DNA of 62,998 nucleotides from Bdellovibrionales bacterium RIFOXYD12_FULL_39_22 (GTDB taxonomy: Bacteria; Bdellovibrionota; Bacteriovoracia; Bacteriovoracales; Bacteriovoracaceae). Location of the stretch: NCBI GenBank assembly GCA_001770205.1, contig MEQL01000023.1, positions 1-62,998 on the forward strand, read 5' to 3'. A program made the position numbers and the translations under genes. The notes under the pieces are model-generated. The model made no database searches. It worked only from the letters and a program-made list of their open reading frames with translations, and was not told where the DNA came from. Shown here piece after piece: positions 18,145-48,443 of the stretch (position 1 is its first letter; each line of letters opens with the position of its first letter).

Positions 18145-18200
18145 AGTAATTTCCAAATTACGTTTTGAAATGATTTTTTTAAAATTTCTTGATTTAGTTG

Positions 18201-27612: not shown

Positions 27613-27703
27613 TTCCCGACCAAAGCATTTTACTCTGTGGCCTTTATTCTATTCCAAAAAAATGACACTTAAGATTTGAATTACTTTGTCGATAACAATA
27701 TCG

Positions 27704-28342
27704 ATGAATAGTAATCTTCTAAGTATATTTATTTTTGCCTTCCTGCTCATCTTAATAAATTCTTGTGCCAATACAAGGCCATTTCTTAACATTGATGCCA
27801 ATCAAAAAGAAGTCGATGTTTTTGCAAAAACGGCCGGAGAAAAAGAGTTTAAAAAAGTTGGGACGACTCCCTATAAAGTAGAATTCAATGAATTGCGCAA
27901 AACCATGAATCTTAGCAAAATACCAATGGTTTTTGAGATAAGAAAAGCAACCTACATAACTCGCCAATTTGTAGTCGTTGATATGGGAAGTGCCGATATG
28001 AATTTGTATTTTGAATTAGAAGAGAGTCGCGACCTAGAAGAAGTAGATAGAATGAATAAACTCTCCAGTAGACTTTTTGAGGCACAACGATTAATTAGGG
28101 CAAAAAATTATAACGACGGAACCAAGCTACTTGCAGAATTAGCGCAAGAATATCCCTACGCATCTATCGTCTATGAACTACAAGGCGGCCTTTACTATCT
28201 AAAAAAAGAGATGCAAAATGCGTTGGATGCTTTCTCTACGGCCTTAAAGTATGATCCGAAAAATGTAGTGGCCTTTAGAATGAAACGTTTCTTGGAAGCA
28301 AAGCTAAACGTTACCAGGCCATATCAGGAGGAGAAACGATGA
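27704..28342 (+). CDS. PEGA-like plus TPR lipoprotein
   Basis: Lipobox INSC; VGTTP...IRKATY PEGA-like motif; C-terminal TPRs (ALKYDPKN); ATGA overlap with the next gene. Confidence 0.75.
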   Translation: MNSNLLSIFIFAFLLILINSCANTRPFLNIDANQKEVDVFAKTAGEKEFKKVGTTPYKVEFNELRKTMNLSKIPMVFEIRKATYITRQFVVVDMGSADMNLYFELEESRDLEEVDRMNKLSSRLFEAQRLIRAKNYNDGTKLLAELAQEYPYASIVYELQGGLYYLKKEMQNALDAFSTALKYDPKNVVAFRMKRFLEAKLNVTRPYQEEKR

Positions 28343-30312
28343 AGGCCAATAGCGACGCTTTCTTAAAAACCATCTTCCTCTCTTTACTTTTAACTTTTCC
28401 GCTTGTCGCCCTGGACAATGGGCAAGCATCTGTAGAATGGCAAAAAATCCTTTTGGAAGAAAAAATTCAAGGCCATTTACAAAATCTAATTTCAACCATC
28501 TTATTAAAAAATGAATTCACCGTAGTTGCCACTGTCAAAGTAGAATCCCCAGAGCTAACTGATCTTGCGAGTAATGATTCTGAGGGGGAAAATCAAAATA
28601 ATAGTAATAGTGGAATAAAATTTTCAGATATACCGGCCAGCGTTGATGGAGGAGATGACCTAATCTTATTAGAAAAATTGGGGATAGCAGCACCATCATA
28701 TCCTAGCGAAACTCAGGATAAAGCATCACCCATGCTCTTGCAAAATAGCATTAAGGAGCAGGCCGAGTTACTCTCCAAGTTTGATCTCTTTAAATTTATC
28801 ACTGAAGTTTCTATTCGAATCATCATCGACGAAAAAGTTGATAATGCCAAAAAAGATGCTGTAAAAAAACTGCTCTCGGAACTCTCCTTAAAATTTGGAG
28901 AGTTTCAAGCGACTATTGAAACTAAATTTATGGCACTAGACTTTTCAAGCGAACAGGCGCCAATTAAAGAGAAGGTCGTCTGGTGGGAGATACCGCTCAA
29001 ATTTGCCAATGCTCTGGGAATGATTATGGCCGCTATTATTCTATCGATACTAGCGGTTACTCTCTTTAAACGACACCATGCCTTTTTAGAACAGCGCTCT
29101 GAAGATGGAAAATCTGATAACGAGAATAACTCCCAAGCAGAAATTGATGCGGTCACTGCGCTACAAGGTAGCAGTGTCGGAGGCCCTGCCGCAACAGCAG
29201 GAGGAGGCAGCGGAGAGACAAATAATTCTTCGCAATCTTTTTTAAAAAAGGAGAGCGGCCCAGAACGATTTAAAAATTTACTTAAAGAACATCCAAGTCG
29301 CGCCGGCCTATTGATCAAGCGTTGGATCAAGATAAAATCTCCCAAAAGTAGTTGGGGATTATCTCTTATTACGTCTCGCTTAGAAACTAAAGAATTGGCA
29401 TCAATTTTTAAATTGGTTTCAGAGCAAGAACGCAACGAATGGCGACGATTAATTTCTCCTCTAAATTCCAGCGAAGAGTCCGAGGCAGAGTTATTTGTTG
29501 AGGCCCAAATAATGGAAGAATTGCTATCCACTTCGATGCTACCCTTAGAGGCAAACACTCTTCTTTCTTCTCTTTCTATAAAAGATGCTGTGGAATTATC
29601 CTCTAAAAATCTAAAGGTGGGAGTTCTTTTAATCAACAGTATGAATACTCAATTTGTCACATCCCTACTGGCCGGACTGGGGGCCGATACCGTTGCTAAG
29701 CTAATAACCGAAAGTATGAAAGTCACCTCCGAAATCCTTCCTCGTCTTTTTGAGGATATCCGTGGCGAATTAGAAGCAAAATTACAGCGGCCAGAAAAAT
29801 CTCCTTTTATAAAGAGAATTGCCGAACTAATTCCTACTGCCACCCTAGAATTGGAATATGAATTTTGGAATGTTCTAGTTGCAAATCGAGAATTTGCTGC
29901 AATTCAAGAAATTTCTAAAAGCTACTTTCCTTCTCTGTTAATGTCTCAACTTCCTCTTCCTCTTGTTCGACAAACACTAGTAGCATATCCCAAAGCAAAA
30001 CGAATTGAATTTTTCATTTCGCAAGATGCAGATCTACGCAAATTATATATCGACTCTTTTTGCCAAGAGGGATCAAAACTTCGAGAATTACTTGATTTAG
30101 ATATTGATACTATTGAGCGCAATCAGATCTTGGCCCGCAGGATCAAACGCAACGCTAACGAAATTATCAAGGACTTTTACGATTTTAGTCGTCAACTACT
30201 AAGACAAAATCCAGATCTTCAAGACAAAGCACAAGACACAGTAATATCTTGGTTAGAGGAACTCCAAAATAGCGTCCAAGGAACAAAGCAAAAAACAAAA
30301 CTTGCCGCTTAA
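28339..30312 (+). CDS. Putative FliF(RBM3 + C-tail)-FliG fusion protein
   Basis: Signal peptide; split RBM3-like segments LEEKIQGHLQNLI..FTVVATVKV and ITEVSIRIIID..VKKLL..G..IET..F; one TM helix; FliF-C-like EHPSRAGLLIKRWI; then FliG N/M/C-like helical repeats. Confidence 0.65.
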   Translation: MKANSDAFLKTIFLSLLLTFPLVALDNGQASVEWQKILLEEKIQGHLQNLISTILLKNEFTVVATVKVESPELTDLASNDSEGENQNNSNSGIKFSDIPASVDGGDDLILLEKLGIAAPSYPSETQDKASPMLLQNSIKEQAELLSKFDLFKFITEVSIRIIIDEKVDNAKKDAVKKLLSELSLKFGEFQATIETKFMALDFSSEQAPIKEKVVWWEIPLKFANALGMIMAAIILSILAVTLFKRHHAFLEQRSEDGKSDNENNSQAEIDAVTALQGSSVGGPAATAGGGSGETNNSSQSFLKKESGPERFKNLLKEHPSRAGLLIKRWIKIKSPKSSWGLSLITSRLETKELASIFKLVSEQERNEWRRLISPLNSSEESEAELFVEAQIMEELLSTSMLPLEANTLLSSLSIKDAVELSSKNLKVGVLLINSMNTQFVTSLLAGLGADTVAKLITESMKVTSEILPRLFEDIRGELEAKLQRPEKSPFIKRIAELIPTATLELEYEFWNVLVANREFAAIQEISKSYFPSLLMSQLPLPLVRQTLVAYPKAKRIEFFISQDADLRKLYIDSFCQEGSKLRELLDLDIDTIERNQILARRIKRNANEIIKDFYDFSRQLLRQNPDLQDKAQDTVISWLEELQNSVQGTKQKTKLAA

Positions 30313-30328
30313 TAAATCATAACCAGAT

Positions 30329-31267
30329 TTAAAAAAAGACACCCAGTCCAATCTTATCGCGAGGAGCATCTTTGGGATATAATACCTTAATAATTACTCT
30401 TCGATTATGCCGCCGATTTTCCAAAATGGGTTTTCCCAATCCATTAACCTCAGAATAAAGCGGCCTGGCCGATCCAAAGCCGACGGCCACTAATCTCTCT
30501 GGAGGAAATCCTGCCCGTTCAAATTTACGCAAAACATAGGCCGCACGCACGGAGGATAGTTCCCAATTAGAAGGATAAATTTTGCTATTTAATGGCACAC
30601 CATCGGTATGGCCTTCTATCATAATGGGAAAGTTATATCCGGCATTTTTAATTATATCGATTAAAAAATCAATTGACTCTTCTACCTCTCGATCCGGCGC
30701 CACATGGCCTGATTCAAAAAAATTCGAGGAGGTAAAAACAATTTCTAATCCTTGCTCATAGCTAACGGTCACTGTTTTTGAAGAATCAGAAAACTCTTTT
30801 ACTGAGGCCAATAGCTGCTGCATCTGCACTTTTTCTTGTTCGGCCTTTTCCTTTTCTGCTGCTGATTGTTCTAAATCTTGTTTTTGCATCTCTTCACTTT
30901 GCTCACTAGTGCTAGTCGGCGAAGCTGCTTCTGATTGATCCACCATTTCTCCCACAATAGGTTCTAGTACTCGCTCGTTTTTCTTGCCTTGTTTGGTACT
31001 TTTTTGTGAAGCAGAAACATCCACTTCCCCTTTCTCTCCAGAATCCTCAATTAGCGAACCATTAAAATAGCGGGCCATCTCCTGCGCACGCTTTTGAAAT
31101 ATGGGATCTTCATAATTGGCAAAACCCACCAATAAAATGAAAAAACAGGCCATCAGCGACATTAAATCAGCGTAAGAGGTTAACCATGTTCCTTCGGTGT
31201 TGGCCTTGGCCGATGATGAATCATCTAATACTCTGCGTCTTTTTTTTCTCACACTTTGCTCAGTCAT
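30329..31267 (-). CDS. motB: MotB/PomB-family stator subunit
   Basis: WLTSYADLMSLMACFFILL with the channel Asp; OmpA-like IEGHTD, SNWELSSVRA, NRRV. Confidence 0.93.
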   Translation of the reverse strand: MTEQSVRKKRRRVLDDSSSAKANTEGTWLTSYADLMSLMACFFILLVGFANYEDPIFQKRAQEMARYFNGSLIEDSGEKGEVDVSASQKSTKQGKKNERVLEPIVGEMVDQSEAASPTSTSEQSEEMQKQDLEQSAAEKEKAEQEKVQMQQLLASVKEFSDSSKTVTVSYEQGLEIVFTSSNFFESGHVAPDREVEESIDFLIDIIKNAGYNFPIMIEGHTDGVPLNSKIYPSNWELSSVRAAYVLRKFERAGFPPERLVAVGFGSARPLYSEVNGLGKPILENRRHNRRVIIKVLYPKDAPRDKIGLGVFF

Positions 31268-32067
31268 TATCTACCTGCCCTGACACTTTTCCAATCTAAC
31301 CGACTAGATGGAAGTAAGTAGGAATTTAATATCTCGGCCAATAAGATGGGATTAGTTTTTTCTAAGATTAGTTCTACTCCTCGAATAATAATTTTATTTT
31401 TTACAAAAACCTCTTCCGATGAATCGAGCAAGTTTTCACCTACTGGTAAAATGACCATATTTGAAATAACCGCACCGTACAGGGTGGTTATCAAGCAAAT
31501 TCCCATGGCCGGGCCCATTGTTTTCATCGCATCTTTTTCGCCTAAACTTCCTAAGAGAACAATCATTCCAATAGTTGTTCCCATCATTCCAAAGGCCGGA
31601 GGATATTTGGCCAATGACATAAAACGATTAGCGTCCTTAACGTACATACTATTTAAATTCTGGGCCCGCTCATCTAAAATTTCTAACAACCGATCGGCCT
31701 CTGCCACTTCATCAACAATAAGCTGTAGTGACTCTCTTAAAAATGCATCTTTTACGTTGGGAAGTATTTTTTCTAATGATGTTCCCGTGCGATAATCTTC
31801 ACAAACTTGCATTAGCTCTTTGATGGTGACGGCATAATCGGCACGTTTAAAGCGCAGCACTCTACTAAAAAATACTTTTACTAGGCGCAGTACTCGGTCA
31901 AATTGTAGCGCTATGGCCGAAGAAACGATAGAACCGCCCACTACGATGAAAATAGAAATTAAATCAAAAAAAACTTTGATTCCACCTGAATTTTGCGCCG
32001 ATAGCTCCAAGCTGAAATAGAGAACTATCGATCCAGCAATCATTGCTAGCACGGCATATATATTCAT
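31267..32067 (-). CDS. motA: MotA/PomA-family stator subunit
   Basis: IVVGGS, DAFLRESLQLIVD, PAFGMMGTTIG, MGPAM..LITTLYG; 266 aa. Confidence 0.93.
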   Translation of the reverse strand: MNIYAVLAMIAGSIVLYFSLELSAQNSGGIKVFFDLISIFIVVGGSIVSSAIALQFDRVLRLVKVFFSRVLRFKRADYAVTIKELMQVCEDYRTGTSLEKILPNVKDAFLRESLQLIVDEVAEADRLLEILDERAQNLNSMYVKDANRFMSLAKYPPAFGMMGTTIGMIVLLGSLGEKDAMKTMGPAMGICLITTLYGAVISNMVILPVGENLLDSSEEVFVKNKIIIRGVELILEKTNPILLAEILNSYLLPSSRLDWKSVRAGR

Positions 32068-32124
32068 ATTCTAACTCCCTTCATAAACTCCTTACGGATA
32101 CAAAATAGATACAACCTAATTATA

Positions 32125-33780
32125 CTAGAACAATCCTCCCAGTGACAGTAGGAAGGAGTCTCCCTGTATAAGCAATTCTCCATTTGTATCATTTCGCACA
32201 AGATCTGTTTTGAAATACTCGCCAGAAAAAGTTGGACGAATTCCAAAGTAGCGGCGAAAAAAATTAAAGCGATATTTCACACCATATGAATATCCATTTA
32301 ACCCCTCTCCACCAACAGAAATTGGATAGCGAAAAAGCAACTGAAGTGAATGCGAATACAGCTCCAATGCTGGCCCCAATTCTGGCCATAATATCGAAGA
32401 AGAATTCAGTTGTACTCCTTCCCAAATTCGATTTAGTGCAAAATAGTCAAACCTCGACCAATCAAGGCCACCAAAAATATAAAAATAGCGAAAAAGTGAG
32501 CTGGCCCAAACTACTTCAAAAGATAGTCGATCTGGTGGAGTTTTAGGTTCCGTGGATAAAAAACTTACATAAGAAAGCTTAACTCCCCAAAGATCTGGGA
32601 AACGTACATTGGGCCTTCTAAAACGCAAAAAACCATATCCCCCAAGTGAACGTAACGACGCATCCACATTAACAATCCCCAAAGATATTACGTTTTCTTG
32701 TAAAAACCCCAAGGTTCCAATCATCCAAAACTTCCATGGCCCAAAAAAGGAAAAATCATTTTGATAGAAACTATTTGCCTGCGAGGTCGATTTTCCAACG
32801 TTCCAGGTCTCCTCCGCTCTTTTGGCCACATTCCTCGCATCGCTCTTAGAATTTTCTTCCTCGTTTTGTAAGGCCAGCGCTGTTTCTATTTTATCTTGTC
32901 TGCTCGTAATCTCTTCAATAGGAGGCGCTGTTTCTCCATTCTTTATTTGTTTTATGCGACTGTTTTGTTCATCTATTTTTAATATAATCAACTTGCCCTT
33001 GTTATCAATCTGTTCGCTTAATTTTTTTTCCACCCGCCGCCGCTTTTGCTTAGACATATCTATATCAATATCGCGATCAACTAGTAGGTCATATAGGTTT
33101 AGTCGTTGCTTCATCTTTTCTAACTTAACAGCGGCCGCAGCTGGAGAGAGTTGTGAAATGGCAACAGTTTCGGCCTCAATGTCAAGATTACTGGCCTCTC
33201 CTAAAAAAGAGTTACTAACCTCTTTGGTGATCTCTTCTTGTTTTTTTAATTCATTTCTAATTTCGGCAACTCTCTTTTCTGCTTCTAATTTGAGAGGTAT
33301 TTCATTATCTTCTACAAATTTTTTCCCAAAAATAAATTCGTAGAGCGCAAAACGTAATCTCGATACAATCTGATCGCGCGGAACCCAAATTTTACGCAAA
33401 GATTTAACTTGTTTGACGGCCACTCCTTCAAAAAGAAAAAGTTGCAACCGATAATACTTCCCTATTCTCTGGGTACGAATTTTATATTTTAAAATAAATT
33501 GTTCTTCGATATTCTCCGGAAAAAATAGTGGTACTTTATTAAAAACCAAAAGATATTTTTGTGAACGCAACACTACATCAATAACATTCCGCTTGAGTTC
33601 ACGACGAAGGCCATCCAAACTATCTGGTAACTCACTATCAAATAAAAAAAGCGGTGGATTCTCTGATACCCTATTTTGCTGCTCAACTTTTTGCCCATAT
33701 GATTGTGCGGGCCATCCAACAATAAGATAAAATAGCACGACAAATCGCAAAGTTGTTCTAAAAATAAAACAATACCTCAT
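32125..33780 (-). CDS. Secreted protein with a coiled region and C-terminal beta-barrel-like domain
   Basis: Signal peptide (..AQSYG/Q); amphipathic strands; ends LSLGGLF; co-oriented upstream of motAB; start uncertain. Confidence 0.65.
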   Translation of the reverse strand: MRYCFIFRTTLRFVVLFYLIVGWPAQSYGQKVEQQNRVSENPPLFLFDSELPDSLDGLRRELKRNVIDVVLRSQKYLLVFNKVPLFFPENIEEQFILKYKIRTQRIGKYYRLQLFLFEGVAVKQVKSLRKIWVPRDQIVSRLRFALYEFIFGKKFVEDNEIPLKLEAEKRVAEIRNELKKQEEITKEVSNSFLGEASNLDIEAETVAISQLSPAAAAVKLEKMKQRLNLYDLLVDRDIDIDMSKQKRRRVEKKLSEQIDNKGKLIILKIDEQNSRIKQIKNGETAPPIEEITSRQDKIETALALQNEEENSKSDARNVAKRAEETWNVGKSTSQANSFYQNDFSFFGPWKFWMIGTLGFLQENVISLGIVNVDASLRSLGGYGFLRFRRPNVRFPDLWGVKLSYVSFLSTEPKTPPDRLSFEVVWASSLFRYFYIFGGLDWSRFDYFALNRIWEGVQLNSSSILWPELGPALELYSHSLQLLFRYPISVGGEGLNGYSYGVKYRFNFFRRYFGIRPTFSGEYFKTDLVRNDTNGELLIQGDSFLLSLGGLF

Positions 33781-33874
33781 ATCAGGAGGATAACTGAACC
33801 AGACAATATCAACTACCATTGGCAAAATATTCCCCTTCTATCATTGGCCTGAACATCATGGGATAATTGTTAGC

Positions 33875-34567
33875 ATGAGTAGATATAATAAATTGCTAAC
33901 CTTTTTTTCCAAGAAAAAATTATCCACTGGCGAAGAAGACGCTCTAAATCGCCTTATCCAAAAGTTTCAAGACGCAGAACTACTTGCGGGCCCAACAGCT
34001 CAAACTTCTTGCTCTATTTTGGAACAGGAAAAAATTGAACTTCCATCTGACTCTTCCTTTCCTCCCCCGTTGCCTCAAGGCGTGGCAACCGCAAATAAGG
34101 CCGTGACAACTGCCAAGAACCAACCCGAACCTCTCCCACCACTTCCTGCAGTGCCCACAAAAAAATCCAAAAACAGGCGGGAAAAAAAAGTGCCCGGACC
34201 TAGACATATGACGATATCAAGCAACTCCGCAAATGACCTCCGAGAAATTTTAAAGAAAAATTTTAACACCTCTAATATTCAAATTTCTCGTTACGCCGAC
34301 AATGAATCTATGTTGACCACGGTACATTTTGAACGACAAGAGAACTTTTCGGCAGAAGAAATTCGCATTTTAGAAGAACTCCTCGTACCTTTGCGAGGGC
34401 AAATTAAAAAGTTTGCCGGCGAATTAGATTTTGTAAATCCACTAACTAAAGAGAGTCTTGCTAACCAACTTACTTTTGTTATAATTCTCCCTCTTGACTT
34501 ACCTACTCCTGGGGCCTCTTCCTCCAAAAGTCGAAGAGTGTCGGCCTCTGGCGCAGATACCACATGA
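33875..34567 (+). CDS. Hypothetical protein with a Pro-rich linker
   Basis: 230-aa ORF with an ATGA overlap to the next gene. Confidence 0.6.
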   Translation: MSRYNKLLTFFSKKKLSTGEEDALNRLIQKFQDAELLAGPTAQTSCSILEQEKIELPSDSSFPPPLPQGVATANKAVTTAKNQPEPLPPLPAVPTKKSKNRREKKVPGPRHMTISSNSANDLREILKKNFNTSNIQISRYADNESMLTTVHFERQENFSAEEIRILEELLVPLRGQIKKFAGELDFVNPLTKESLANQLTFVIILPLDLPTPGASSSKSRRVSASGADTT

Positions 34568-35208
34568 AAAAAAAGTTTATCCTAAAAATCTTTTACCTGA
34601 TAATCACCATTTTTATCTTTGCTGCCCCCTTAATGGCAGAAAATAAATCTGCTTCTCCCTTTGCTCCACTCTTATCCGGACGAATGGGCGTATCCATGGT
34701 CAGTTTTGCCCAAGTTGCATCCTCTTCCGAAGGAACTGCCACCGAAAGCGTTGCCGCCGCCCCGGAAAGCGGAAGTATCTCCACCACTATTGCCTCTATA
34801 CAATATGAAATTTTCCAAAACAATACTCGCTCATTTTTTTTTAACGGCGTAGGATCAATCTCCACTACCAGTCTAGACAAGTATTACGCCATTGGCCTAG
34901 GTATGAATTGGTATCTAAACGGCGCGGCGGCCCTGGCCACCTTTTTAGATAGTGGTATGAAAATTCAGATCGTTCCTAAAATTCGTTATTACGCTGGAAT
35001 TGATGTACTCGGACGCTATCTGGCCTACACAACCAGTACCGAAACCCGTGGAGATGTGGGTTTTGAAATTGGCGGACATCTTGGGGCCATCTATGGTATC
35101 GACGACATTCGTGGAATAAAAGCAGAGGCCGGAGTCTTTCAAGGCGTAGGAATTGAAACCAGCTCTACCAATATTCAAATTATGCTGGGTGGAACTTATT
35201 TCCTATAG
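34564..35208 (+). CDS. Small outer-membrane beta-barrel protein
   Basis: Signal peptide (..PLMA/E); about 8 amphipathic strands; ends GGTYFL. Confidence 0.75.
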   Translation: MKKKFILKIFYLIITIFIFAAPLMAENKSASPFAPLLSGRMGVSMVSFAQVASSSEGTATESVAAAPESGSISTTIASIQYEIFQNNTRSFFFNGVGSISTTSLDKYYAIGLGMNWYLNGAAALATFLDSGMKIQIVPKIRYYAGIDVLGRYLAYTTSTETRGDVGFEIGGHLGAIYGIDDIRGIKAEAGVFQGVGIETSSTNIQIMLGGTYFL

Positions 35209-35218
35209 CATCTTAATT

Positions 35219-38992: not shown

Positions 38993-39005
38993 AACTTGCT
39001 CCCAG

Positions 39006-42000
39006 TTAATCCTCTGTCACATCTACCGCACATCGAACCGCCGCGGCCCAACCTTCATTTGGTCTAGAAATTATATCTGATGAAAAACGGCCGGCCCCAG
39101 AACCACTGTCCCACTTGCCCCCGCTATACATATAGCGAACAAAGGTATTGGGGACTATATTGTTTAGAGAGATGATTAATCTGTCACTGTTATATGGGAA
39201 AGTAACATACGTCGCCCCCGAGGACTTGGCGGTTATCAACTTATTATCGTCGTCTGGTTGAATATCACACGTACCACTCGCACAGTTAAGCGAAAGGCCA
39301 AGTGCTGGTGAAAAATAATTTGCATTAATGGGGCTAGCGTATTGCCATTCCGCAGTTCCCGTTACCGAAGTGGCCAAACCAGTAGCAGAAAATTCCAAGT
39401 AATTTCCATCCCCATTTTTCAAAGTCTCTTGTGCTACGGCATCTAGTGGAGTGGTAACATTGGCGCTACAGGTAATATTTGGACTATTATATTCACAATA
39501 AACTTGGTCAGAAGTCATATCCCAAGCATTTCCAATCATGTCTTGCAACCCATAGCGAGATTGACAATCCTTACTGCTATAAGCTCCATTAGAACCAGTT
39601 CGTAAAATATATATAGAATCCGCGGGATCTGCTGCCCCCGGATAACGATCGTTATCCTCAAAAGTATCCAAAGGCCAATTTCCACCTTTGTTATTATTAT
39701 TACAAAAACTGGTAGTGGTGTTGCTGGTATATTCAACCGTTGTTATATCGTAATGATTTCCATAAATATAGCGCGGCCCTGTCAAACTTTGGGCCGGCCC
39801 CGTGGCCGCTGCTCCCCAGGGATCTGAACGCCAAGCGGCAGCTGCAATAAATTCTTTCTTGCGTAACATCCTTCTATTAAAACTTGATGCCTCTCCATTG
39901 GTAGTAAGCGAAATAGAAGTACCTTTGCATAAGTTGTATCCTCCTAACTCTTGAGTGATACGCATCAGTGGTGGTAAATAGGCCCGTGTTGAGACAATCT
40001 CTTCTGCCGCTGCTTCAACAACCACTGCCCCCAATCCATTTATCTCTTTCCAATTTGAGCCACTAGGAGAGTTTTGCTGCATGGAGCAGTAGCCATTATA
40101 ACGATTATAATAAATTGCCCCTTGAACGGCAGAATATCCCAAGGTTAACGGGTTACCAAGGCCAATGCAGGGTGCAGAGACTCCTCCAACTATGCAGTTA
40201 ACTTTTCTAAAGTTGCAACCATTTTCAAAACGATCAATCAACATATCATTTTGAATATCATAATAGTGAGTTCCGCCGTCTAATATGGAGGTAAGTCCGT
40301 TAAATTCACAACGATAATTACTTTCTTCATCTACACTCTTATGCAGCATTGCACACATCTCTTGATTGGCGATCCAGCGATGCATCAAGGCCATATTATC
40401 TGGCGGCAAAATAACTCTGGCCACTTCGGGATGTGTACTCGTGGCATGAAATGCCAGATCTACCCCGTCAAATCTTCCAATAATTTTGAACCAATATTTT
40501 ACTCCAGGAGTCATTCCTAAAAATGCCACCATGGCCGCACTATTATCCGATCCTAAAATAAGTTCATATTTGGAAGTTCCATACACCGTTGGGACCGAAG
40601 CAATGTGCACAAAAGAACTACTGTCTGTTGCCGAAACTGATGACGCATACACCTCATAAGAGACAGAACCGGCGGCAGCAAAATCCGAAAGCCTTAGTGC
40701 CGAATTAGGGATACCAAAATCTTTCCAAACTAACCTTATAATCCCACTGTTACTTCCGGCAATATCCTCTTTATAGTTTTTCGTTACAGGATCAATAGAT
40801 TCTCGCACTACTACTTTTTGAGCGGAATCCAAAACCAGGCCAGAAGTTTTTGGCCCAATTGCAAAAATGTCATCCCAACCTCCATGAACTAATTCTGGAT
40901 TTGAGGTAATACAAGCATCGGTTGCAACCTTAGAATTATTTACTCGAAAAATACCACCTATTCCATTGTCATAATAGGTGGAAACCCCAATTTCATAGGC
41001 AGTACTAAATGCCGGAAGATTTCTTATTTCATAGGGTAACGCCACTTCTGCGTCTACTACGATACGATGGTAAACACTATACTCGTCGTCTGCAATCGCG
41101 TCGTCGTAACGAAAATCGTCATGGCCATTTTCATAGACGGCATCCTTTAACTTATAAAATATTTCGTAATGAGTAAAAATACCACTTGATGGCCGAGTCC
41201 AATTAATCGATAGAGAGTTAAATGTTTGATTCGTACAAGCAGTATCCACTCCATTAAAATCAGGAGCAGCATAAACAGGCTTTCCACACCTAATTACTCT
41301 TGAACTTAAAGTACGCGGGCCACTGGGGTGTGCCGGAGAAGTAGAATACGGCAAAAGAACAAAGCAAGAGGTTTCATCCGTTGGTAATCCCGCAACCTTT
41401 ATACTCGTGGAGGCAACATTAAGTGGTGTGGCAGCATCAATGTATGCGCCACTTGGGTTTGATGAAGAGTAAATTGTAATCTGTGACTGAACTCCCGCAA
41501 GTACAGGGTTATTATCCACGGCCTCTCCATCTTCTTTCACCCTAAATAGTCGGTACTCGTTAAAAACTCCGCTCGCGGTATCCGCCGGCAACCACGACAG
41601 TGTCAAAGTGGTCAGTCCAACAGTACCTGCTGGTTGTGTTATACTTTGAATACCATCGAAGGGAGAAACAGGAGGGGTAGTGGTAGCATCGCGATAGATA
41701 TTGTTCCCCATAACATCTTCTCTCTCTGAACAACGGGCAGCATCTCTACAGGCCACAACGTAGATGTAATTGGTAGTATGCGGAATTAATCCACTGATTC
41801 GATGAGAAAGTGTCGTTGACTCCAACGTGGCCATTAAAAATGCACCATCTTTATCAGGATCGACGGCCCGCATCTCATTTAGCGCATATATCCGAAATTC
41901 ACCACAGGCAGTGCAACTGCCCCAAGAAACATCTACCTTAGTAAAACCATCCGTGTTGCTGGGAACTACGGCGGCCTCAATACCGGAAAATTCCATTGGA

Positions 42001-42824
42001 CGATTCAAGAAAGTTTTGGCAACAACGTAATGCTCGTTTAACTCATATTTGCTAGGACTCGCGGAATTTTTGGCCCGCATAGCGATATAGTAAGTTGCTC
42101 CTGGAGTTAGTGGTGTCGATTCACCCAAAATGTATTCTGCGGCAACAGGGTCAGAAAAAACAATGGGTGCCGCTTCCGCAACATCTGCAGAGTGTAATTT
42201 GGTGAAAAGTTCATCTAAGGAGGTAGCGTAATAAATGTAGTAACCGGAGATAACATGCTCGCCAGAAAATGGGTCACCGATAATTATATCCGGAGAAACT
42301 GCTGGAATCCACTGCAGCTTTAATTGTGTCATAGCAGCAACTCCCGGCATATTAGCAGCAGTTGCCACCCCTTCAAAAACTGGTAAATGGTTGGGAGCGG
42401 TCGAAACAATTATCCCTTTGGTTCTATCGCTCAGTTTATCATTGTCTACGTCGTAGGCCAGCATGCTTATGTGGTAAGCGGTGTTGACGCGCAAATCACC
42501 AATTTCCAAATAAAGTTCTCCATCCGAATTCTCTCGCAACAGTTCAGATGGTATCGAGACTGAAGGCTCCGTGCTACCGTTTAAATAGACCCGATAGTAG
42601 TAAACTCCGGAACCACCGGTGGCAGCGTTAAACTTAACCATAATTTTAGTATCCGAAATATATTGGCCAGAAGTAACCCCGGCAAAGGATAGCGGCTTGG
42701 TGTTTACCAGCTGTACCTTGTCTGTCCCACTCTTGCGAATAGAACCGACGCACGAAACAAGCAGTGTTGTAACCAGCAAAATAATTATCGACAAAACGGT
42801 AGTAAAAATTTTATTTGCGCTCAT
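39006..42824 (-). CDS. Large surface lipoprotein, tandem paralogue of 35219-38992
   Basis: Lipobox LVSC; colinear with its neighbour (SCVGSIRKSG, YISDTKIM, WDDIFAIGPKTSGL); CQSRYGLQDMIGNAWD, terminal VRC. Confidence 0.8.
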   Translation of the reverse strand: MSANKIFTTVLSIIILLVTTLLVSCVGSIRKSGTDKVQLVNTKPLSFAGVTSGQYISDTKIMVKFNAATGGSGVYYYRVYLNGSTEPSVSIPSELLRENSDGELYLEIGDLRVNTAYHISMLAYDVDNDKLSDRTKGIIVSTAPNHLPVFEGVATAANMPGVAAMTQLKLQWIPAVSPDIIIGDPFSGEHVISGYYIYYATSLDELFTKLHSADVAEAAPIVFSDPVAAEYILGESTPLTPGATYYIAMRAKNSASPSKYELNEHYVVAKTFLNRPMEFSGIEAAVVPSNTDGFTKVDVSWGSCTACGEFRIYALNEMRAVDPDKDGAFLMATLESTTLSHRISGLIPHTTNYIYVVACRDAARCSEREDVMGNNIYRDATTTPPVSPFDGIQSITQPAGTVGLTTLTLSWLPADTASGVFNEYRLFRVKEDGEAVDNNPVLAGVQSQITIYSSSNPSGAYIDAATPLNVASTSIKVAGLPTDETSCFVLLPYSTSPAHPSGPRTLSSRVIRCGKPVYAAPDFNGVDTACTNQTFNSLSINWTRPSSGIFTHYEIFYKLKDAVYENGHDDFRYDDAIADDEYSVYHRIVVDAEVALPYEIRNLPAFSTAYEIGVSTYYDNGIGGIFRVNNSKVATDACITSNPELVHGGWDDIFAIGPKTSGLVLDSAQKVVVRESIDPVTKNYKEDIAGSNSGIIRLVWKDFGIPNSALRLSDFAAAGSVSYEVYASSVSATDSSSFVHIASVPTVYGTSKYELILGSDNSAAMVAFLGMTPGVKYWFKIIGRFDGVDLAFHATSTHPEVARVILPPDNMALMHRWIANQEMCAMLHKSVDEESNYRCEFNGLTSILDGGTHYYDIQNDMLIDRFENGCNFRKVNCIVGGVSAPCIGLGNPLTLGYSAVQGAIYYNRYNGYCSMQQNSPSGSNWKEINGLGAVVVEAAAEEIVSTRAYLPPLMRITQELGGYNLCKGTSISLTTNGEASSFNRRMLRKKEFIAAAAWRSDPWGAAATGPAQSLTGPRYIYGNHYDITTVEYTSNTTTSFCNNNNKGGNWPLDTFEDNDRYPGAADPADSIYILRTGSNGAYSSKDCQSRYGLQDMIGNAWDMTSDQVYCEYNSPNITCSANVTTPLDAVAQETLKNGDGNYLEFSATGLATSVTGTAEWQYASPINANYFSPALGLSLNCASGTCDIQPDDDNKLITAKSSGATYVTFPYNSDRLIISLNNIVPNTFVRYMYSGGKWDSGSGAGRFSSDIISRPNEGWAAAVRCAVDVTED

Positions 42825-43126
42825 ACGTTCCTCATCGACACACTGGCGCAATATCTTAACCGGCCCAGTGCCATCAATGACGATATTCTATGCCTGAAAT
42901 GCCCCCAAATTGTTGCGCACATAATTTTCAATAAGTTGCCCACTTCGAATCAAAGAAAAACTTATCTAAACTGCCCAGAAAAGTTGGCAGTCTTACTTTT
43001 TTTTAGGCCACTAAATACCCAGTATAAACAGTTCAACTATTTGAAAATAAGCAGCAAGAACAATAGACGCATCTTCTGGCCAAAATAACGGTAATATTGA
43101 GGGTGATTACTGACGAGGAGATCTTC

Positions 43127-46100
43127 ATGAGAAACTATTTACTCTCAATACACTCGGTGATGCTTTTAGTGATGCTGGCCATCTTGTCAGCATGTAAACT
43201 TGATCCCAGTGTGGCAGTCTCTGCCGGTAAAAGCACCCCCGCCTCGCTTTCCCTTACTGGCCACGAATTAGGAGTTAGAGAAACTGGTGAAGAATTTGAT
43301 TTTTCTATCACTTTAAAAAATAACGGCAACGTCGCAGCAAAAGAGCTAAAATTAATCACTCAACTTTCAACGCCCTTCACTTTTAAAGATGGTGAATATC
43401 CTGGTACAGGCGGTGACTGTCACAACCAGGTGGCCGGCAATGACGAATGCACAATCGTGGTTACCTTCAAAAGTGAAGAAGATGGTGAATACCTCACCGA
43501 TTTAAGTTTCTCCTACAATGACGGTGTAGAAATAAAGAAATCTGCCAACACCCTCCGGCTGCAAACTAAAACCAAGGCAAAATTGGTAGTCCGTACAATG
43601 ACGGAAGAAGATCAACTGACCAGCTTCAACTTTGGGATTAAATCACTTGGAACTTCTCATTTGCAAACACTTTATCTGGTAAACGAAGGAAGCTTTGATG
43701 CAACCATCATTGCTACTCCCGTAATGAGCGCACCTATCATCTATAACGGTAATGGTGTGTTTCCAGGATTAGGTGGAAGCTGCGGAGGAATCGTGGCCGG
43801 TAATAGCTCTTGCTCCATCATCGTTGCCTTTGCACCAGAAGTAGTTGGGCCCGAGGCCAGAAATCTCAATTTGCAATACTCTGACGGAGTTGGAAACATC
43901 ACTACCTTAGGATACGCCATCTTTGGAATAAGTGCCAATCTGCGCGGCAACATCGTCTTCGATGACGGAGAGGCCTACCAACTTGGCAACTATCCAATAA
44001 ACACCCCCAGCAACGGATACGTCTATCAGGTGGTGGTAAATAACACTCGAGAAATTGATTCTATCAATTTAACAGCGTCTCTCTCGAATCTATCCGATTT
44101 CAGTTTTTTAGGAGGGAGTTATCCCGGCCTTGGCGGCAACTGCAGCACCACTTTAGCGTCACAGTCAAATTGCTCTATCTTTCTCTCGTTCCATCCACAA
44201 AGTTTAGGGATTAAAGAGAGTATTCTGCGCATAGATTTTAATGACAATAACGAACTTGACCCACAAAATAGTTTTTCCCAAATTATCTACAGCGGAAATG
44301 GAGTAAATCCTGGAAACTTGCAGGTAACACTTGAATCCCCTTCTACCGTTTTTGAACTACTAGAATCTGGAGGAGTCGAGAGCAAAACCTTTATGCTGAG
44401 GAATGTTGGAAGTTACAAAGTATCAGATATTCGCGCCGGAGAGATGCCCTCTCCCTTCTTATGGGACGGAGGAACCTGTTTTGCCACCAACGCGCTTATC
44501 GCTCCCAACGGAACTTGCACTATCGTAGTGAAATTTGCACCAACCATTGCCGGCAGTTTTTCGACTCCGCTACCGTTAATCTACAACGGCGGACAAGGAG
44601 AAACATCTACCTCCGCTATCATCATTTCTGGAAGTTCTTCGGCAGTTGGTAAATTGACCACTACACATTCCGAGATTGGCACTGATCTGGTAATACCGCC
44701 ATCGATGTTCGGAGCGATCACTAGCGATTACACCATAACGCTAGAGAATATTGGAGAAGCAGTTGCCTCAGAGATAACTTTCCCCTTGGCCACCGATATT
44801 GCTCCTTTTGAAGTGGTTAGCAACAATTGTGGGACGGCCCTAAATGCTGGTGCCAGTTGTCAATTTGTTATCCATTTCTCCCCAACTACCGCTGGCCAAT
44901 ACACCAGATCTTTCTACATCAACTACAATAATCAAATACGCCTAAGCAGTCGCCTCTTCTCTCTTGTCTCTTCCGCACTCTCCGCGGCAACATTTGATTT
45001 ATCTCCGACAACTTTGGATTTAAAAGGGGCCAATGTTGGTGATACCGTAAGTGATTTCATCACCCTCACTAATCTGGGTACCGCTAGTGCAACGGGAATA
45101 ACGGCCGTAAATATTGCGCCACCTTTTTCCATTGTTCCAGGCGGCACATGCCTTTCGACTTCCAATTTTGTCCTTCCTCAACTGAGGCCAGGATATTCCA
45201 ACACCTATGACATTGCTTGTACTTTACGGGTGAATTTTACACCCTCGGCCTTAGGTGCCTTTAATGGTGAAGTGGCCTTCTCTTTTTATAACGGAGAGGC
45301 AACTGTTACTTCTGGAACGATCATATTACAAGGTCTGGGAGCAAATCTGGGAAAGCTAGATCTTATCACCCCAACTTTAGGCCCAGGTACCGGGCTTGAT
45401 TTGAATGAGGGTAGTCTATATATGGGGGCCGCAGCACTTAATACAGACGCTTTACAAATTTTTACCTATAGAAATTATGGGGCAGCAAATGCCACCAACA
45501 TCTCACTCTCTGCTCTCTCGGCCCCTTTTTCATATACCGCCGATACATGCAGTGGCGCAACTATCATGCCAAATGGAACTTGCCAATTCACCGTGGCCTT
45601 TCATCCAACAATTAGAAACTACACCCTGAATAATAATCTGTGGCCCTCCATCATTACATTAAATTTTGATGACGGCCTTGAGGCCAAATATAGACGAATT
45701 CTTCTAACCGCCACCGCCAACAACCCTCCCGACATTACTATAGAGGATATCGATGGGGCAGGATCATACGATTACGGCGACGTGGCCGTTAATGTGGCCA
45801 CGCTGCGTGGATATAAAATTAAAAACAATGGCGAAACTGCCGCCACAGGACTTTCTGTCTCCTTGCTAAACATTAGTGACATGCCCTACAGTATAAAAAA
45901 TAGTAATTGCCAAACGTCACTAAGCGCCAAGGCCAACTGTACTTTCAATGTAGAATTTCGGCCGGCACTACAAACTTCATTCATCTCGCAAATTAACACC
46001 ATCTACAGCAATAATAGCGGAGGACAAATACTACCTACAACCTTTGCCATCAGAGGAAACGGCGTAAATCCAGTAGCAGTTATGTCCACCTGGAACGATA

Positions 46101-47347
46101 TATACGCCGCCAGTGACACCGACAGTGGATCTGTACATCTTGGCTGGAACGCCATGACAACTCCTTCCGCCATCACCTTTACTAAATATAATATTTACCG
46201 CGCAGAGACCCCTCTTCCGATTTCCACGGCCGACCTGGCCGCTGGAGGATTTCTTCTGGCCAGTGTAACTGCCGCTAGTAGCAGCTACTACGACACCGAC
46301 CCTTCTCTAGAACTAGGAAAAAGTTATTACTATACCATTCGCCCCATCTACGGTACTGCTCCCGAAACACTAGTAGAAGTTGATGCTGGAGATGTTAGTG
46401 CTCAAATAAAAATTACCATTCCCCCACCCAACATGAGTTTGGTACATCGCTGGATAAGCAACATTGAACAATGTGCCCTAATGGCCAGAGATGTCGATAA
46501 AAATAATAATTTTCGCTGCAACTATGCCGGAATTGATAACAAAGATGGATTCCTTGATCAAGGATATGATCTTTTTGTTGATCGATACGAAACATCTGTT
46601 AACGTAGCTGGTGATGGACAAAGTGTCCCGGCCGTTTTACCTAGTGGCAGACTTAGTCAGCTAGCGGCCAATACCCTTTGCCAAACAATGGAAGAATCAA
46701 TTAATGGATCACTCTATCAAAAACGTCTTCTTCGTCGAACAGAACAAGTTGTGGCCTCCTCCTGGCCGTCAACATTGCTTGATGCTGATAGAGAAAAAAT
46801 TGAAAATGGAACAGTAAGCGGGGCCTGCGCCAATACGCAGACCGAGATTCAAGTGGCCGGCAGTAAGGCCCTCTGCGTCTCTCGTTATGGCATCTACGAT
46901 ATGATCGGCAATCTATGGGAATGGGCATCAGATAGAACTAGTAATGGCATAGGAGTCGCTACTAGTCTTGACCCGGACAATACGGCGATCATAGGAATAT
47001 TTGTCGGAGGTATAAATGCTGGTGCTATTATCAGTAATGCCACTTGTTTTTCGACTGTACTGGGCTCTCCTCGACCGATTTCTGGTGGAGTATGTATGAA
47101 TGACAGCATGGCCATAGCTTCCTTGGGCACGAACAAACTAGAAGGAGACTACTACTGGCCGCCTATTGGCAGTGGCGGCAAAGGTGTGCGCGGCGGAGGG
47201 GGACTAGGAATCAGTGTTACCGATCCCTTTAAAGGAAAATCTGGCCGTTATACTGTTGATTGGTACACCCCTATTAGCCCCACTACCGAAGTTCCTCTTA
47301 CTCACTACCTATATACCGGCGGCAGATGTGGGTTTGCAGTCCACTAA
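43127..47347 (+). CDS. Large surface lipoprotein: Ig-like (ASH/choice-of-anchor-D-type) repeats, FN3 and a C-terminal FGE-sulfatase/CLec domain
   Basis: Lipobox LSAC; repeated L.N.G...A..I.....PF......C...L.....C...V.F.P modules; CVSRYGIYDMIGNLWEW, terminal GGRC. Confidence 0.82.
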   Translation: MRNYLLSIHSVMLLVMLAILSACKLDPSVAVSAGKSTPASLSLTGHELGVRETGEEFDFSITLKNNGNVAAKELKLITQLSTPFTFKDGEYPGTGGDCHNQVAGNDECTIVVTFKSEEDGEYLTDLSFSYNDGVEIKKSANTLRLQTKTKAKLVVRTMTEEDQLTSFNFGIKSLGTSHLQTLYLVNEGSFDATIIATPVMSAPIIYNGNGVFPGLGGSCGGIVAGNSSCSIIVAFAPEVVGPEARNLNLQYSDGVGNITTLGYAIFGISANLRGNIVFDDGEAYQLGNYPINTPSNGYVYQVVVNNTREIDSINLTASLSNLSDFSFLGGSYPGLGGNCSTTLASQSNCSIFLSFHPQSLGIKESILRIDFNDNNELDPQNSFSQIIYSGNGVNPGNLQVTLESPSTVFELLESGGVESKTFMLRNVGSYKVSDIRAGEMPSPFLWDGGTCFATNALIAPNGTCTIVVKFAPTIAGSFSTPLPLIYNGGQGETSTSAIIISGSSSAVGKLTTTHSEIGTDLVIPPSMFGAITSDYTITLENIGEAVASEITFPLATDIAPFEVVSNNCGTALNAGASCQFVIHFSPTTAGQYTRSFYINYNNQIRLSSRLFSLVSSALSAATFDLSPTTLDLKGANVGDTVSDFITLTNLGTASATGITAVNIAPPFSIVPGGTCLSTSNFVLPQLRPGYSNTYDIACTLRVNFTPSALGAFNGEVAFSFYNGEATVTSGTIILQGLGANLGKLDLITPTLGPGTGLDLNEGSLYMGAAALNTDALQIFTYRNYGAANATNISLSALSAPFSYTADTCSGATIMPNGTCQFTVAFHPTIRNYTLNNNLWPSIITLNFDDGLEAKYRRILLTATANNPPDITIEDIDGAGSYDYGDVAVNVATLRGYKIKNNGETAATGLSVSLLNISDMPYSIKNSNCQTSLSAKANCTFNVEFRPALQTSFISQINTIYSNNSGGQILPTTFAIRGNGVNPVAVMSTWNDIYAASDTDSGSVHLGWNAMTTPSAITFTKYNIYRAETPLPISTADLAAGGFLLASVTAASSSYYDTDPSLELGKSYYYTIRPIYGTAPETLVEVDAGDVSAQIKITIPPPNMSLVHRWISNIEQCALMARDVDKNNNFRCNYAGIDNKDGFLDQGYDLFVDRYETSVNVAGDGQSVPAVLPSGRLSQLAANTLCQTMEESINGSLYQKRLLRRTEQVVASSWPSTLLDADREKIENGTVSGACANTQTEIQVAGSKALCVSRYGIYDMIGNLWEWASDRTSNGIGVATSLDPDNTAIIGIFVGGINAGAIISNATCFSTVLGSPRPISGGVCMNDSMAIASLGTNKLEGDYYWPPIGSGGKGVRGGGGLGISVTDPFKGKSGRYTVDWYTPISPTTEVPLTHYLYTGGRCGFAVH

Positions 47348-47354
47348 ATTAATT

Positions 47355-48443
47355 CTAAAACTTTACAACTCCCACTGCCGCAACGGTGGTGATATTATCT
47401 TCGATTTCTTCGTACAACATACCTAACACTTTTTGCTTATATGAGGCGATCTGATAGATCAGCGATAATTCTAATTTATCAGATAAAAAACCAACCCGTA
47501 GTGCATACTCGGAAATATCTCTATCTTCCGCTGAAATATCTAAATCAGTAGTGTACGCTAATGTCCCTATTTTAATTTGCGGAGTAATAAAAAAGTTTTG
47601 CATAAGAAACAACGACAATTCAAACCCATACTCTGTTAATTTATTTTCTACCTCTTCAGCATAATCTTTTTCGCTATCTTGCTTTAACTTGGCAATCAGC
47701 TCTATGTCATTTTGCGCCCACACCAATTCCGCCTCAACACAACTGCGTTCCCCAATCGCCCATTCCCCATCTTGCACCGGTGCCCGCAAGAGATAGGATA
47801 AATCTAAACTGGTTCCCTGGCGCCCTCCTTCGCGAAAATCGCTATACCCAATTGATGCTACGAAATGAGAAAAAGAGATTTTCTGCTCAGAGATTCCAGC
47901 GGTAGCAGAAGAATTACTATCTAATAAAAAGCGGCCACCAAAATAGAAAACGGAAGAGCGAAAACTACCACCAAGGCCCATGGTATTTTGGATAGCTTCG
48001 ATATCTGGCATACCTTCAAATTTTTCAGAAGAGCTCTCATATTCCGCACCTAAAGCAAAACTATCACTCAAGCGCCACCCCAAATAAAGGGCCGTCTCCG
48101 TAACCTTATAATCAATGGCCGGGTTATCAAGATTTTTATATTCACGATTGCCAGTATGATAGCTGGCATCTATCGAAAATTTATCTACGTTTGCAAAAAG
48201 ATATGGAATCATTGCTGACTCATTTATTTGCGACACTTCGCTTCCATCTTGTTTATTAGAAGTAGAAATAACTAAGTATTTCGCTCCTAGGCCATTTCTC
48301 TTTGACCAAGCAGTGGCCAATGAAGAGTTATTCGTTTCTAAATTATGTCGTCTGCTGTAGGGAGTAATGCTTCCGGCCCAAAGCTGTTGATTAAAAACAA
48401 TGGCCCCCAAAAAAAAGGGCAAAACTCGCGCAAATAAATTCAT
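47355..48443 (-). CDS. Outer-membrane beta-barrel (porin-like) protein
   Basis: Signal peptide; many amphipathic strands; terminal Phe (GVVKF). Confidence 0.75.
   Translation of the reverse strand: MNLFARVLPFFLGAIVFNQQLWAGSITPYSRRHNLETNNSSLATAWSKRNGLGAKYLVISTSNKQDGSEVSQINESAMIPYLFANVDKFSIDASYHTGNREYKNLDNPAIDYKVTETALYLGWRLSDSFALGAEYESSSEKFEGMPDIEAIQNTMGLGGSFRSSVFYFGGRFLLDSNSSATAGISEQKISFSHFVASIGYSDFREGGRQGTSLDLSYLLRAPVQDGEWAIGERSCVEAELVWAQNDIELIAKLKQDSEKDYAEEVENKLTEYGFELSLFLMQNFFITPQIKIGTLAYTTDLDISAEDRDISEYALRVGFLSDKLELSLIYQIASYKQKVLGMLYEEIEDNITTVAAVGVVKF

Follow-up and report, generated by a model that had tools for sequence, protein, structure and literature searches.

To our knowledge, FliG and the stator proteins MotA and MotB (MotAB) are known to cooperate only in the flagellum. 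In Salmonella and Vibrio, FliF-FliG fusions that were engineered or arose spontaneously still assemble rings, according to the available portions of two reports (PMC6079021, PMC11481574). The nearest published natural case that we found is the FliF-FliG fusion of Chlamydiaceae, which the accessible part of its description (PMC4768692) gives as a protein of ~330 amino acids (aa) with RBM2 (RBM, ring-building motif), an RBM-like domain and no SpoIIIAG-like (RBM3) domain, of which only the cytosolic part resembles FliG-M and which is tied to an injectisome, with no MotAB described in that part. Here, we describe a locus in a 62,998-nucleotide stretch of DNA (the window; contig MEQL01000023.1, assembly GCA_001770205.1) from the predatory-type Bdellovibrionales bacterium RIFOXYD12_FULL_39_22, in which a 657-aa protein much longer than the chlamydial fusion, here called FliFG and encoded at 28339..30312 (+), joins a FliF-like to a FliG-like part and lies beside a motA-motB pair. 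We consider it probable that this cluster is a conserved, self-contained, stator-driven envelope machine built of flagellar motor parts, which would act on outer-membrane barrels and giant lipoproteins apart from the flagellum. No FliF::FliG-MotAB module of this type was described in the literature that we searched (subscription-only papers lay outside the search).

The fusion is not visible from the single sequence: the window protein alone matched no Pfam family and gave no meaningful NCBIfam or PDB match, a word-index homologue search returned only the protein itself, and AlphaFold2 run on the single sequence gave an unusable model with a predicted local distance difference test (pLDDT) score of 40. 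In an exhaustive HMMER scan, 312 relatives passed E≤0.001 and 126 passed E≤1e-30, mostly of 620–750 aa and matched end to end. A family profile built from 78 sequences matched the M and C domains of Thermotoga FliG (3ajc; E 7.2e-8) and Salmonella FliG (E 1.6e-5) in the PDB and, weakly, the second transmembrane segment (TM2) and C-tail of FliF (E 0.044). Comparisons of the profile with one canonical FliG or FliF sequence were weak (probabilities of 26% and 0.5%) and were replaced by profile-profile comparison in hhalign with 19 canonical FliG and 18 canonical FliF, all from the same phylum. Against FliG, family columns 386–592 aligned with residues 126–331, the M and C domains (probability 84%, E 7.6e-6), and against FliF, columns 27–317 were colinear with residues 237–555, which hold RBM3, TM2 and the FliG-binding tail (281 columns, probability 86.8%, E 4.3e-6). 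An alignment-based AlphaFold2 model reached a pLDDT of 83.6, and its ten best PDB rows in Foldseek were all FliG or FliF (full-length FliG at probability 0.99–1.0, E ~3e-3). In VIA-align, model residues 335–637 were placed on Salmonella FliG 4–329 (Z 10.6, 287 residues aligned) and the periplasmic domain on Salmonella FliF 231–438 (Z 10.5, root-mean-square deviation 3.2 Å, 93 residues). The comparison rows included injectisome PrgK/EscJ at Z 6.0–6.5 and unrelated OsmC-fold proteins at Z 8.8, so an RBM-like fold alone is not unique to FliF. Look-alike clusters of 500–720 aa in a language-model Atlas carry FliG_C, FliG_M and YscJ_FliF_C, with FliG models in 11–20% of nearest-cluster members; we treat these as leads only. 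The N, M, C domain order of FliG is found in FliFG by VIA-align, Foldseek, PDB profile and hhalign, and an RBM3 with insertion followed by TM2 and the FliG-binding C-tail of FliF by VIA-align and hhalign. Hence, on profile-profile, model and structure-alignment results, the 657-aa protein is a remote but genuine fusion of the second half of FliF (RBM3-TM2-tail) to a complete FliG, which an earlier note on this DNA had proposed from the letters alone.

Read along its length, FliFG starts with a hydrophobic segment, followed by the periplasmic RBM3-like domain with a conserved hairpin insert at residues 28–222 (28420..29004, +), a transmembrane (TM) segment at residues 223–245, a disordered linker and FliF C-tail-like helices at residues ~303–334. 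The FliG N/M/C-like domains occupy residues ~335–640 in the cytoplasmic part (29341..30309, +). The periplasmic part thus spans ~195 residues and one RBM; RBM1 and RBM2 (Pfam YscJ_FliF) gave no match in FliFG, whose alignment starts at FliF 237, and the only PF01514 match in the genome is the canonical fliF of contig 39. The insert carries the family-conserved motif D-Y-I-x-F-S-K-L-G-L-E-A-P (K113, G115, P119), and we take this hairpin to sit where FliF has its β-collar. W329 lies within the stretch aligned to the FliF tail, for which the conserved Trp of the canonical alignment is W557. EHPQ(R) in the middle domain of FliG is the FliM contact; the EHPQ motif (E138-H139-P140-Q141), invariant in the 19 canonical FliG, is S-K-N-L in FliFG, in a stretch that is non-conserved in the family. 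Within the last domain, conservation is highest in a torque-helix-like stretch, G578-S-K-x-R582-[DE]-x-x-[DE]-x-[ED]588, in which G578 is kept in 90% of the family, R582 in 82% and E/D588 in 87%, and residue 588 aligns with an Asp that is invariant in the 19 canonical FliG. The E. coli FliG residues that face MotA are given as R281 and D288/D289 in the accessible text of PMC12505986.

The stator genes encode a 312-aa MotB-type subunit (30329..31267, −) with Asp34 in its TM segment, a plug and an OmpA-like peptidoglycan-binding domain, and a 266-aa MotA/PomA-type subunit (31267..32067, −). Pfam assigns MotA_ExbB, MotB_plug (8.5e-11) and OmpA (3.5e-12), all over cut-off. The window MotA matches over its full length 6ysf ('Chemotaxis MotA protein', 3e-31) and PomA 8bri (8e-26) in the PDB, and its best NCBIfam model is PomA/MotP, below the equivalog cut-offs (PomA 123 versus 341 bits). 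Its R93, kept in most MotAs of the module, aligns with a position that we take to be R88 in PomA numbering, and module MotAs share the loop [ED]xYR[KR]GE. The window MotB has PDB matches to MotB/PomB, and the motif SYAD around its TM Asp is conserved across 20 module MotBs; between plug and OmpA domain it also carries an acidic Ser/Gln/Lys-rich insert of ~65 residues (residues ~77–142) that is absent from the other 19. In a MotA tree, the window stator separates from the ExbB/TolQ group of the genome at 100/100 support. A four-TM MotA with the Arg of the cytoplasmic loop and a MotB with TM Asp, plug and peptidoglycan-binding domain are thus both found, and by the scheme that separates flagellar-type stators from generic ion transporters in the available part of PMC12505986, the pair looks like a flagellar-type (PomAB-like) stator and not a generic ion transporter, in line with the earlier note. 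That note had also seen here the minimal core of a rotary motor, which stands insofar as homologues of FliF, FliG and MotAB are present and falls short in the absence of RBM1/RBM2 and in the EHPQ motif that is not kept.

The cluster comprises eleven open reading frames (ORFs) at 27.7–48.4 kb, all recovered where the note had placed them, and is bounded by fadB/fadA and a Lyase_1/ADSL_C (purB-like) gene in Pfam. The motB and motA genes are convergent with the FliFG gene. On the strand of motA and upstream of it lies a 566-aa gene, from which a 230-aa ORF and a 214-aa barrel-like gene diverge; three giant lipoprotein genes and then a 362-aa gene come next. Across the block, Pfam names MotA_ExbB, MotB_plug and OmpA, TPR, fn3 and HYDIN-type Ig, with FGE-sulfatase weak, and among 49 window ORFs scanned (15 + 34) no flagellar Pfam family was matched, which bears out the claim that flagellar genes are missing here. 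The 218-aa PEGA-like/TPR lipoprotein gene (27686..28342, +; lipobox ...LINSC with Cys27, weak TPR match in Pfam), for which the previously noted start at 27704 is an internal ATG, overlaps the FliFG gene by 4 bp, a case of translational coupling. Its family profile matches consensus TPR proteins and has an N-terminal consensus, 'SNPExAxIF...IGKTP', that resembles the PEGA motif; a predicted complex of the FliFG periplasmic part with the lipoprotein scored 0.25 and 0.07 (mark 0.32).

Three proteins of 566, 214 and 362 aa have signal-like N-termini and a C-terminal F or L, as expected from the earlier description of three barrel-like proteins, and two of them recur in other loci. The first, p566 (32125..33825, −), is an envelope protein in an apparent operon with motA-motB and consists of an N-terminal domain, a charged linker and an outer-membrane-barrel-like C-terminal part, of which residues ~335–566 aligned to OMP_b-brl clusters in an Atlas structure search (a lead only); a PDB profile search gave nothing meaningful. 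The second, p214 (34564..35208, +), is a small Gly/aromatic-rich, outer-membrane-barrel-like protein ending in FL, with no Pfam match and nothing meaningful in a PDB profile search. The 362-aa protein (47355..48443, −; C-terminal F) and the Pro-rich 230-aa ORF (33875..34567, +; no signal peptide) have no family match and no relative in other FliFG loci, so their membership is only putative; a similar-sized gene stands at the position of the 230-aa ORF in other loci.

The giants are proteins of 1257 aa (35219..38992, −; lipobox LLLSC), 1281 aa (39006..42851, −; lipobox LLVSC), a paralogue of the former, and 1416 aa (43097..47347, +; lipobox ILSAC). The two paralogues match fn3; in the 1257-aa protein the FN3 repeats are joined by a C-terminal domain that contains the motif SRYGIQDMTGN. 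The 1416-aa protein carries choice-of-anchor-D (NCBIfam choice_anch_D, 2.7e-57) and HYDIN_VesB Ig (Pfam, 5.8e-38) repeats. Pfam FGE-sulfatase (cut-off 23.3 bits) scored 24.2 on a C-terminal fragment of the 1416-aa protein and 18.2–20.5 on the 1281-aa protein and did not match the 1257-aa protein; against FGE in the PDB, a single sequence of the C-terminal domain gave E ~0.1 over 33 residues, and a mixed, poorly aligned profile of the domain gave no FGE match. The domain is thus weakly FGE-sulfatase-like by sequence. Four ORFs of the genome hold the motif SRYGxxDMxGN, namely the three giants and a 695-aa lipoprotein on contig 61. GldJ and GldK belong to the FGE-sulfatase family or fold. Of the earlier label of giant surface adhesins, the sequences bear out lipoproteins whose repeats are of Ig/FN3 type and whose end is weakly FGE-like; the adhesin role is putative.

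To follow the cluster beyond the window we collected 36 stretches around FliFG homologues from genomes of the same phylum and from Bacteriovoracaceae/Halobacteriovoraceae/Bdellovibrionales metagenome-assembled genomes; after two rows were dropped as second views of the same contigs, these represent 34 distinct loci, including the window and a paralogue in its own genome. Component families were defined by jackhmmer, and at loci other than the window, most neighbour genes were matched only against families of the module itself, with a Pfam scan on a subset. The lipoprotein gene adjoins FliFG in 33/34 loci, the exception being a 368-aa FliG-only form, and p214 is present in 23/34, usually directly upstream of the lipoprotein gene. 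MotA and MotB lie within the fetched DNA in 21/34 loci, p566 in 19/34 (and in 8 of the 10 stretches that hold FliFG with both upstream extensions), and at least one giant in 14/34. Most loci without MotAB have at least one flank shorter than 6.1 kb; one exception is in genome G018, where MotAB lies ~21 kb off on the same contig.

A subtype with ~710-aa FliFG has the order giants-p566-x-p214-lipoprotein-FliFG and no MotAB within ~14 kb upstream. When five genomes of this subtype were searched with the window MotA, 7 FliFG loci were accompanied by 7 MotA genes at 45–51% identity, the two counts being equal in each genome (5/5), and all other MotA homologues were at most 30% identical. All seven share a contig with FliFG at a distance of 0.75–18 kb, in the long cases just past the giants; one of them (in genome G109) has an internal TAA. 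In 7/7 loci, the stator is thus linked to FliFG and not to flagellar genes. Rotor and stator genes therefore bracket the giant genes, and the giant lipoproteins belong to the FliFG/MotAB unit and are not chance neighbours. The earlier note had asked for conserved co-occurrence across Bdellovibrionota, and the FliFG/MotAB cluster, giants included, is conserved across loci of this phylum.

Regulatory genes lie inside some loci, for instance a PilZ-domain protein encoded between the genes for MotB and the lipoprotein (L051:8120-9184(+)) and, between FliFG and motB of another locus, a receiver-ankyrin protein (L023:4836-6335(+)) and a hybrid histidine kinase (L023:7471-9438(+)); their domains hint at control by cyclic di-GMP or a phosphorelay. 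The 368-aa FliG-only form (L028:3464-4570(+), contig C5 of G018) has no periplasmic part and no lipoprotein gene beside it, adjoins motAB upstream of giants and is part of a supercluster of ~25 kb, which has a full FliFG at its end. A FliG-only form of 371 aa likewise occurs in genome G090.

The genome of the window (94.6% complete) has a canonical fliF beside fliG on contig 39, together with fliM, flhA and 8 flagellin-domain matches, all outside the window, and 13 MotA/ExbB-family genes, six of them paired with a plug-bearing MotB. The possibility, raised in the earlier note, that FliFG and its MotAB are the organism's only rotor and stator is ruled out by these genes. A second FliFG cassette lies on contig 55 (C55:56551-76550; FliFG at L016:16462-18678(-)), 0.6 kb from the contig end, with a 245-aa PEGA/TPR lipoprotein, a 738-aa FliFG, a p214-like gene and proteins of 3965 aa (with lipobox) and 1734 aa; the 3965-aa protein has no Pfam match, and the FGE-like motif is absent from both. 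On contig C7, 2.8 kb short of its end, is the closest paralogue of the window MotA (42% identity); after it comes a HEAT-repeat protein, for which a FliG-like nature was ruled out by hhalign.

Further relatives of the parts are scattered over the genome. A possible third, more distant module on contig C31 (60000–79999) holds a paralogue of the PEGA/TPR lipoprotein (L032:98-703, matching the family at E 7.7e-27), a 1235-aa NHL-repeat protein, a response regulator and a motA-motB pair without OmpA match, after which a 588-aa protein shows faint FliG_C-like similarity (hhalign E 0.0039, probability 8.6%). A plug-bearing motAB at C39:124000-141999 (MotA 34% identical to that of the window) has on its flanks three proteins (1713, 1032 and 1063 aa), none with a Pfam match, and there is a weaker lipoprotein paralogue 12 kb away at C39:119847-120533. 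A genome-wide FliG_C search matched on C39 and C4 only, the latter being a 143-aa ORF (L003:1495-1926(-)) with little beyond the FliG_C domain (55 bits, over cut-off); most members of the same family have 3–5 FliG_C matches per genome, and extra FliG_C paralogues are common in the lineage.

FliFG was found in 12/41 close relatives and in 39/301 genomes across the phylum, of which 261 are FliG_C-positive (tables compared by eye; the genomes are related to one another, and no statistic was applied). By family, it occurs in 22/67 genomes of f1, 5/20 of f4, 3/18 of f13, 5/34 of f14, 2/12 of f15 and 1/6 of f28, and in 0/35 of the well-sampled f9. It is patchy even within genera whose members are all FliG_C-positive (for example, 3/7 versus 7/7 in g43). 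Given this distribution and the separate flagellar gene set of its own genome, FliFG is not the rotor of the organism's flagellum, and since it is absent from most FliG_C-positive genomes, the flagellum does not need the module. The Atlas look-alike clusters, again as leads only, are commonest in Bdellovibrionota, Balneolota, Pseudomonadota, Elusimicrobiota, Bacteroidota and Myxococcota, which is compatible with a spread of FliFG beyond the phylum.

The GC content of the block (0.38–0.45) is the same as that of its housekeeping flanks, and a recent horizontal island was therefore rejected as an explanation. The first part of the window (1–21000) is GC-poor (0.31–0.39 at 1–20 kb), with phage-integrase-family genes at 2556–3278 and 11235–12542, a DUF5906 protein (7539–9215), a SIR2_2 protein (17059–18156) and many family-less ORFs, and by its gene content looks like an integrated mobile element or a defence island.

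In the machine that we favour, FliFG would assemble as an inner-membrane ring, like RBM3 in FliF, and ion-driven, peptidoglycan-anchored units of the MotA5B2 type would push its FliG-like domain through the charged helix (K580, R582 and E588 against MotA R93 and its neighbours). The RBM3-like ring with its hairpin collar could then engage the PEGA/TPR lipoprotein and two barrels and relay motion outward, where the giant Ig/FN3 lipoproteins at the outer membrane would be the load or the track. The cluster encodes no export gate, rod, hook or FliM/FliN, and a filament would therefore not be its product; the machine may instead move, display or remodel proteins of the envelope or the surface, as in gliding-type adhesin transport or prey contact. 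We put forward tentatively, as a possibility that we would not presume, the more specific view that FliFG forms a second type of FliG-MotAB rotary motor, a filament-less ring with its own stators, whose rotation would reach the barrels by way of a periplasmic collar and the TPR lipoprotein and would drive the giant lipoproteins as a gliding or prey-handling conveyor.

Several observations weigh against the favoured machine. Ring formation and rotation of FliFG are taken from homology only, and the hhalign probabilities of 84–87% are below 95%. The window protein does not match Pfam FliG_N, FliG_M or FliG_C, and FliFG and most of its relatives fail the Pfam FliG and FliF models; among 70 relatives, MgtE_N was matched in 29, FliG_M in 1 and FliG_N in 1, at E≤0.01. 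The canonical torque-helix Arg is displaced in FliFG by a 3-residue insert, and the equivalent of MotA E98 is poorly conserved among module MotAs. The MotA tree has no clean module clade, with a long-branch clade nested among the module MotAs, and the claim of a dedicated stator therefore rests on the same-contig counts of MotA and FliFG. One locus (L036) has no MotAB within 5.4 kb of flank on the expected side, where its closest relatives have it. Finally, all 39 carriers are FliG_C-positive and none of the 40 FliG_C-negative genomes holds FliFG, so that co-occurrence in non-flagellated lineages, as the earlier note had envisaged, has no case among the 301 genomes, and this sample does not prove that FliFG is independent of the flagellum.

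Some of these points fit a stator-powered transducer or sensor that does not rotate, in which MotAB would work as in Tol-Pal, TonB or Agl with no continuously turning ring, and the FliG/MgtE_N-like repeats would be a scaffold or a regulatory or ion-sensing domain. The MgtE_N matches, the EHPQ motif that is not kept, the single periplasmic RBM and the PilZ and response-regulator genes inside some loci all agree with such a device, and barrels with a TPR lipoprotein recall Tol/Glt-type envelope complexes. However, the stator is of flagellar type (PomA/MotA with a plug-bearing MotB) and not of ExbB/TolQ type, at full support in the tree; FliFG preserves the linear order of the three FliG domains and the FliF tail, conservation in the last domain peaks in the torque-helix-like stretch, and RBM3 forms rings in FliF. 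We therefore regard a non-rotary device as unlikely. That every carrier is flagellated and that the genome has six plug-bearing MotAB pairs would also suit an accessory of the flagellum, with FliFG, the TPR lipoprotein and the barrels forming an added scaffold or ring at the base of the flagellum, to recruit additional stators or to supply a high-torque motor with envelope structures. In some high-torque motors, stators are scaffolded by TPR proteins and lipoprotein disks, and in a relative several MotAB pairs reportedly serve one flagellum. Yet only 39 of the 261 FliG_C-positive genomes carry FliFG, no flagellar Pfam family appears among the scanned neighbour ORFs (the window and a subset of the other loci), flagella have nothing like the giants that lie between the rotor and stator genes, the known motor architecture has no place for a second FliG ring, and the Atlas look-alikes are commonest in Balneolota and Bacteroidota. 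Taken together, these points make a flagellar accessory quite improbable. As for a decaying, functionless duplicate of flagellar genes, the very low identity to canonical FliF and FliG (9–15%) and the internal TAA in the G109 MotA are what one might expect of it, whereas nearly all FliFG matches are full-length open frames, 312 relatives have conserved motifs, gene order is conserved over several families of the phylum and the genome itself holds two intact paralogous cassettes; we find decay scarcely credible.

If the self-contained machine is real, bacteria would have a new envelope machine in which a conserved rotor-stator pair stands alone and works on other output parts, and with it a natural 'minimal motor' for the study of torque without export apparatus, switch complex or filament. 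Because related fusions appear in several phyla, such a second rotary motor, if it exists, could represent an ancient sister of the flagellar one or its repeated re-use, and either origin would bear directly on the origin of the flagellar motor, for which the FliFG cluster offers a concrete object. The gliding motor and adhesins of Bdellovibrionota are called unidentified in the accessible part of a 2026 review (PMC13104615), and the cluster is a candidate for gliding machinery in some lineages of the phylum, not a universal one (39/301 genomes; 0/35 in f9).

Compared with known envelope machines, the cluster combines familiar parts in its own way. In Agl-Glt of Myxococcus, a stator-like motor, TPR lipoproteins, outer-membrane barrels and a surface protein are encoded together; compared by description, AglRQS is TolQR-like, with no FliG-like rotor. 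The same review treats this system, as far as its available text goes, along with the GldLM motor and GldJ/K/N belt of the type IX secretion system and gliding machinery of Bacteroidota, in which GldLM is proposed to push the GldJ/K lipoproteins (PMC13104615). The likeness to GldLM is one of concept, an ion-driven inner-membrane motor coupled to outer-membrane-associated lipoproteins, whereas here MotAB would act on a FliG-like ring and the FGE likeness of the giants is at motif level, too weak for assignment. With the chlamydial fusion, as far as its published description is available (PMC4768692), FliFG shares a naturally shortened FliF joined to FliG-like sequence with no flagellum-building gene set nearby, but at 657 aa it keeps RBM3, is without RBM1/2, has FliG N/M/C and is linked to MotAB, so that it does not fit the chlamydial type (~330 aa, RBM2 without RBM3, FliG-M only). 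The Salmonella and Vibrio fusions, in the accessible accounts, join full-length FliF and FliG in a normal flagellum, whereas FliFG is natural, truncated and stand-alone. With the flagellar motor core itself, FliFG shares the RBM3-like domain, TM2, the FliG-binding tail, the N/M/C order of FliG and a charged helix in the last domain, and its stator shares the plug-bearing, OmpA-domain MotB with TM Asp and the PomA-like MotA. In contrast to that core, FliFG is one polypeptide rather than two, without RBM1/RBM2 and with EHPQ not kept, fliM/N and genes for an export gate, rod, hook or filament are missing from the window ORFs scanned, and the partners of the rotor are instead a TPR lipoprotein, outer-membrane barrels and giant lipoproteins.

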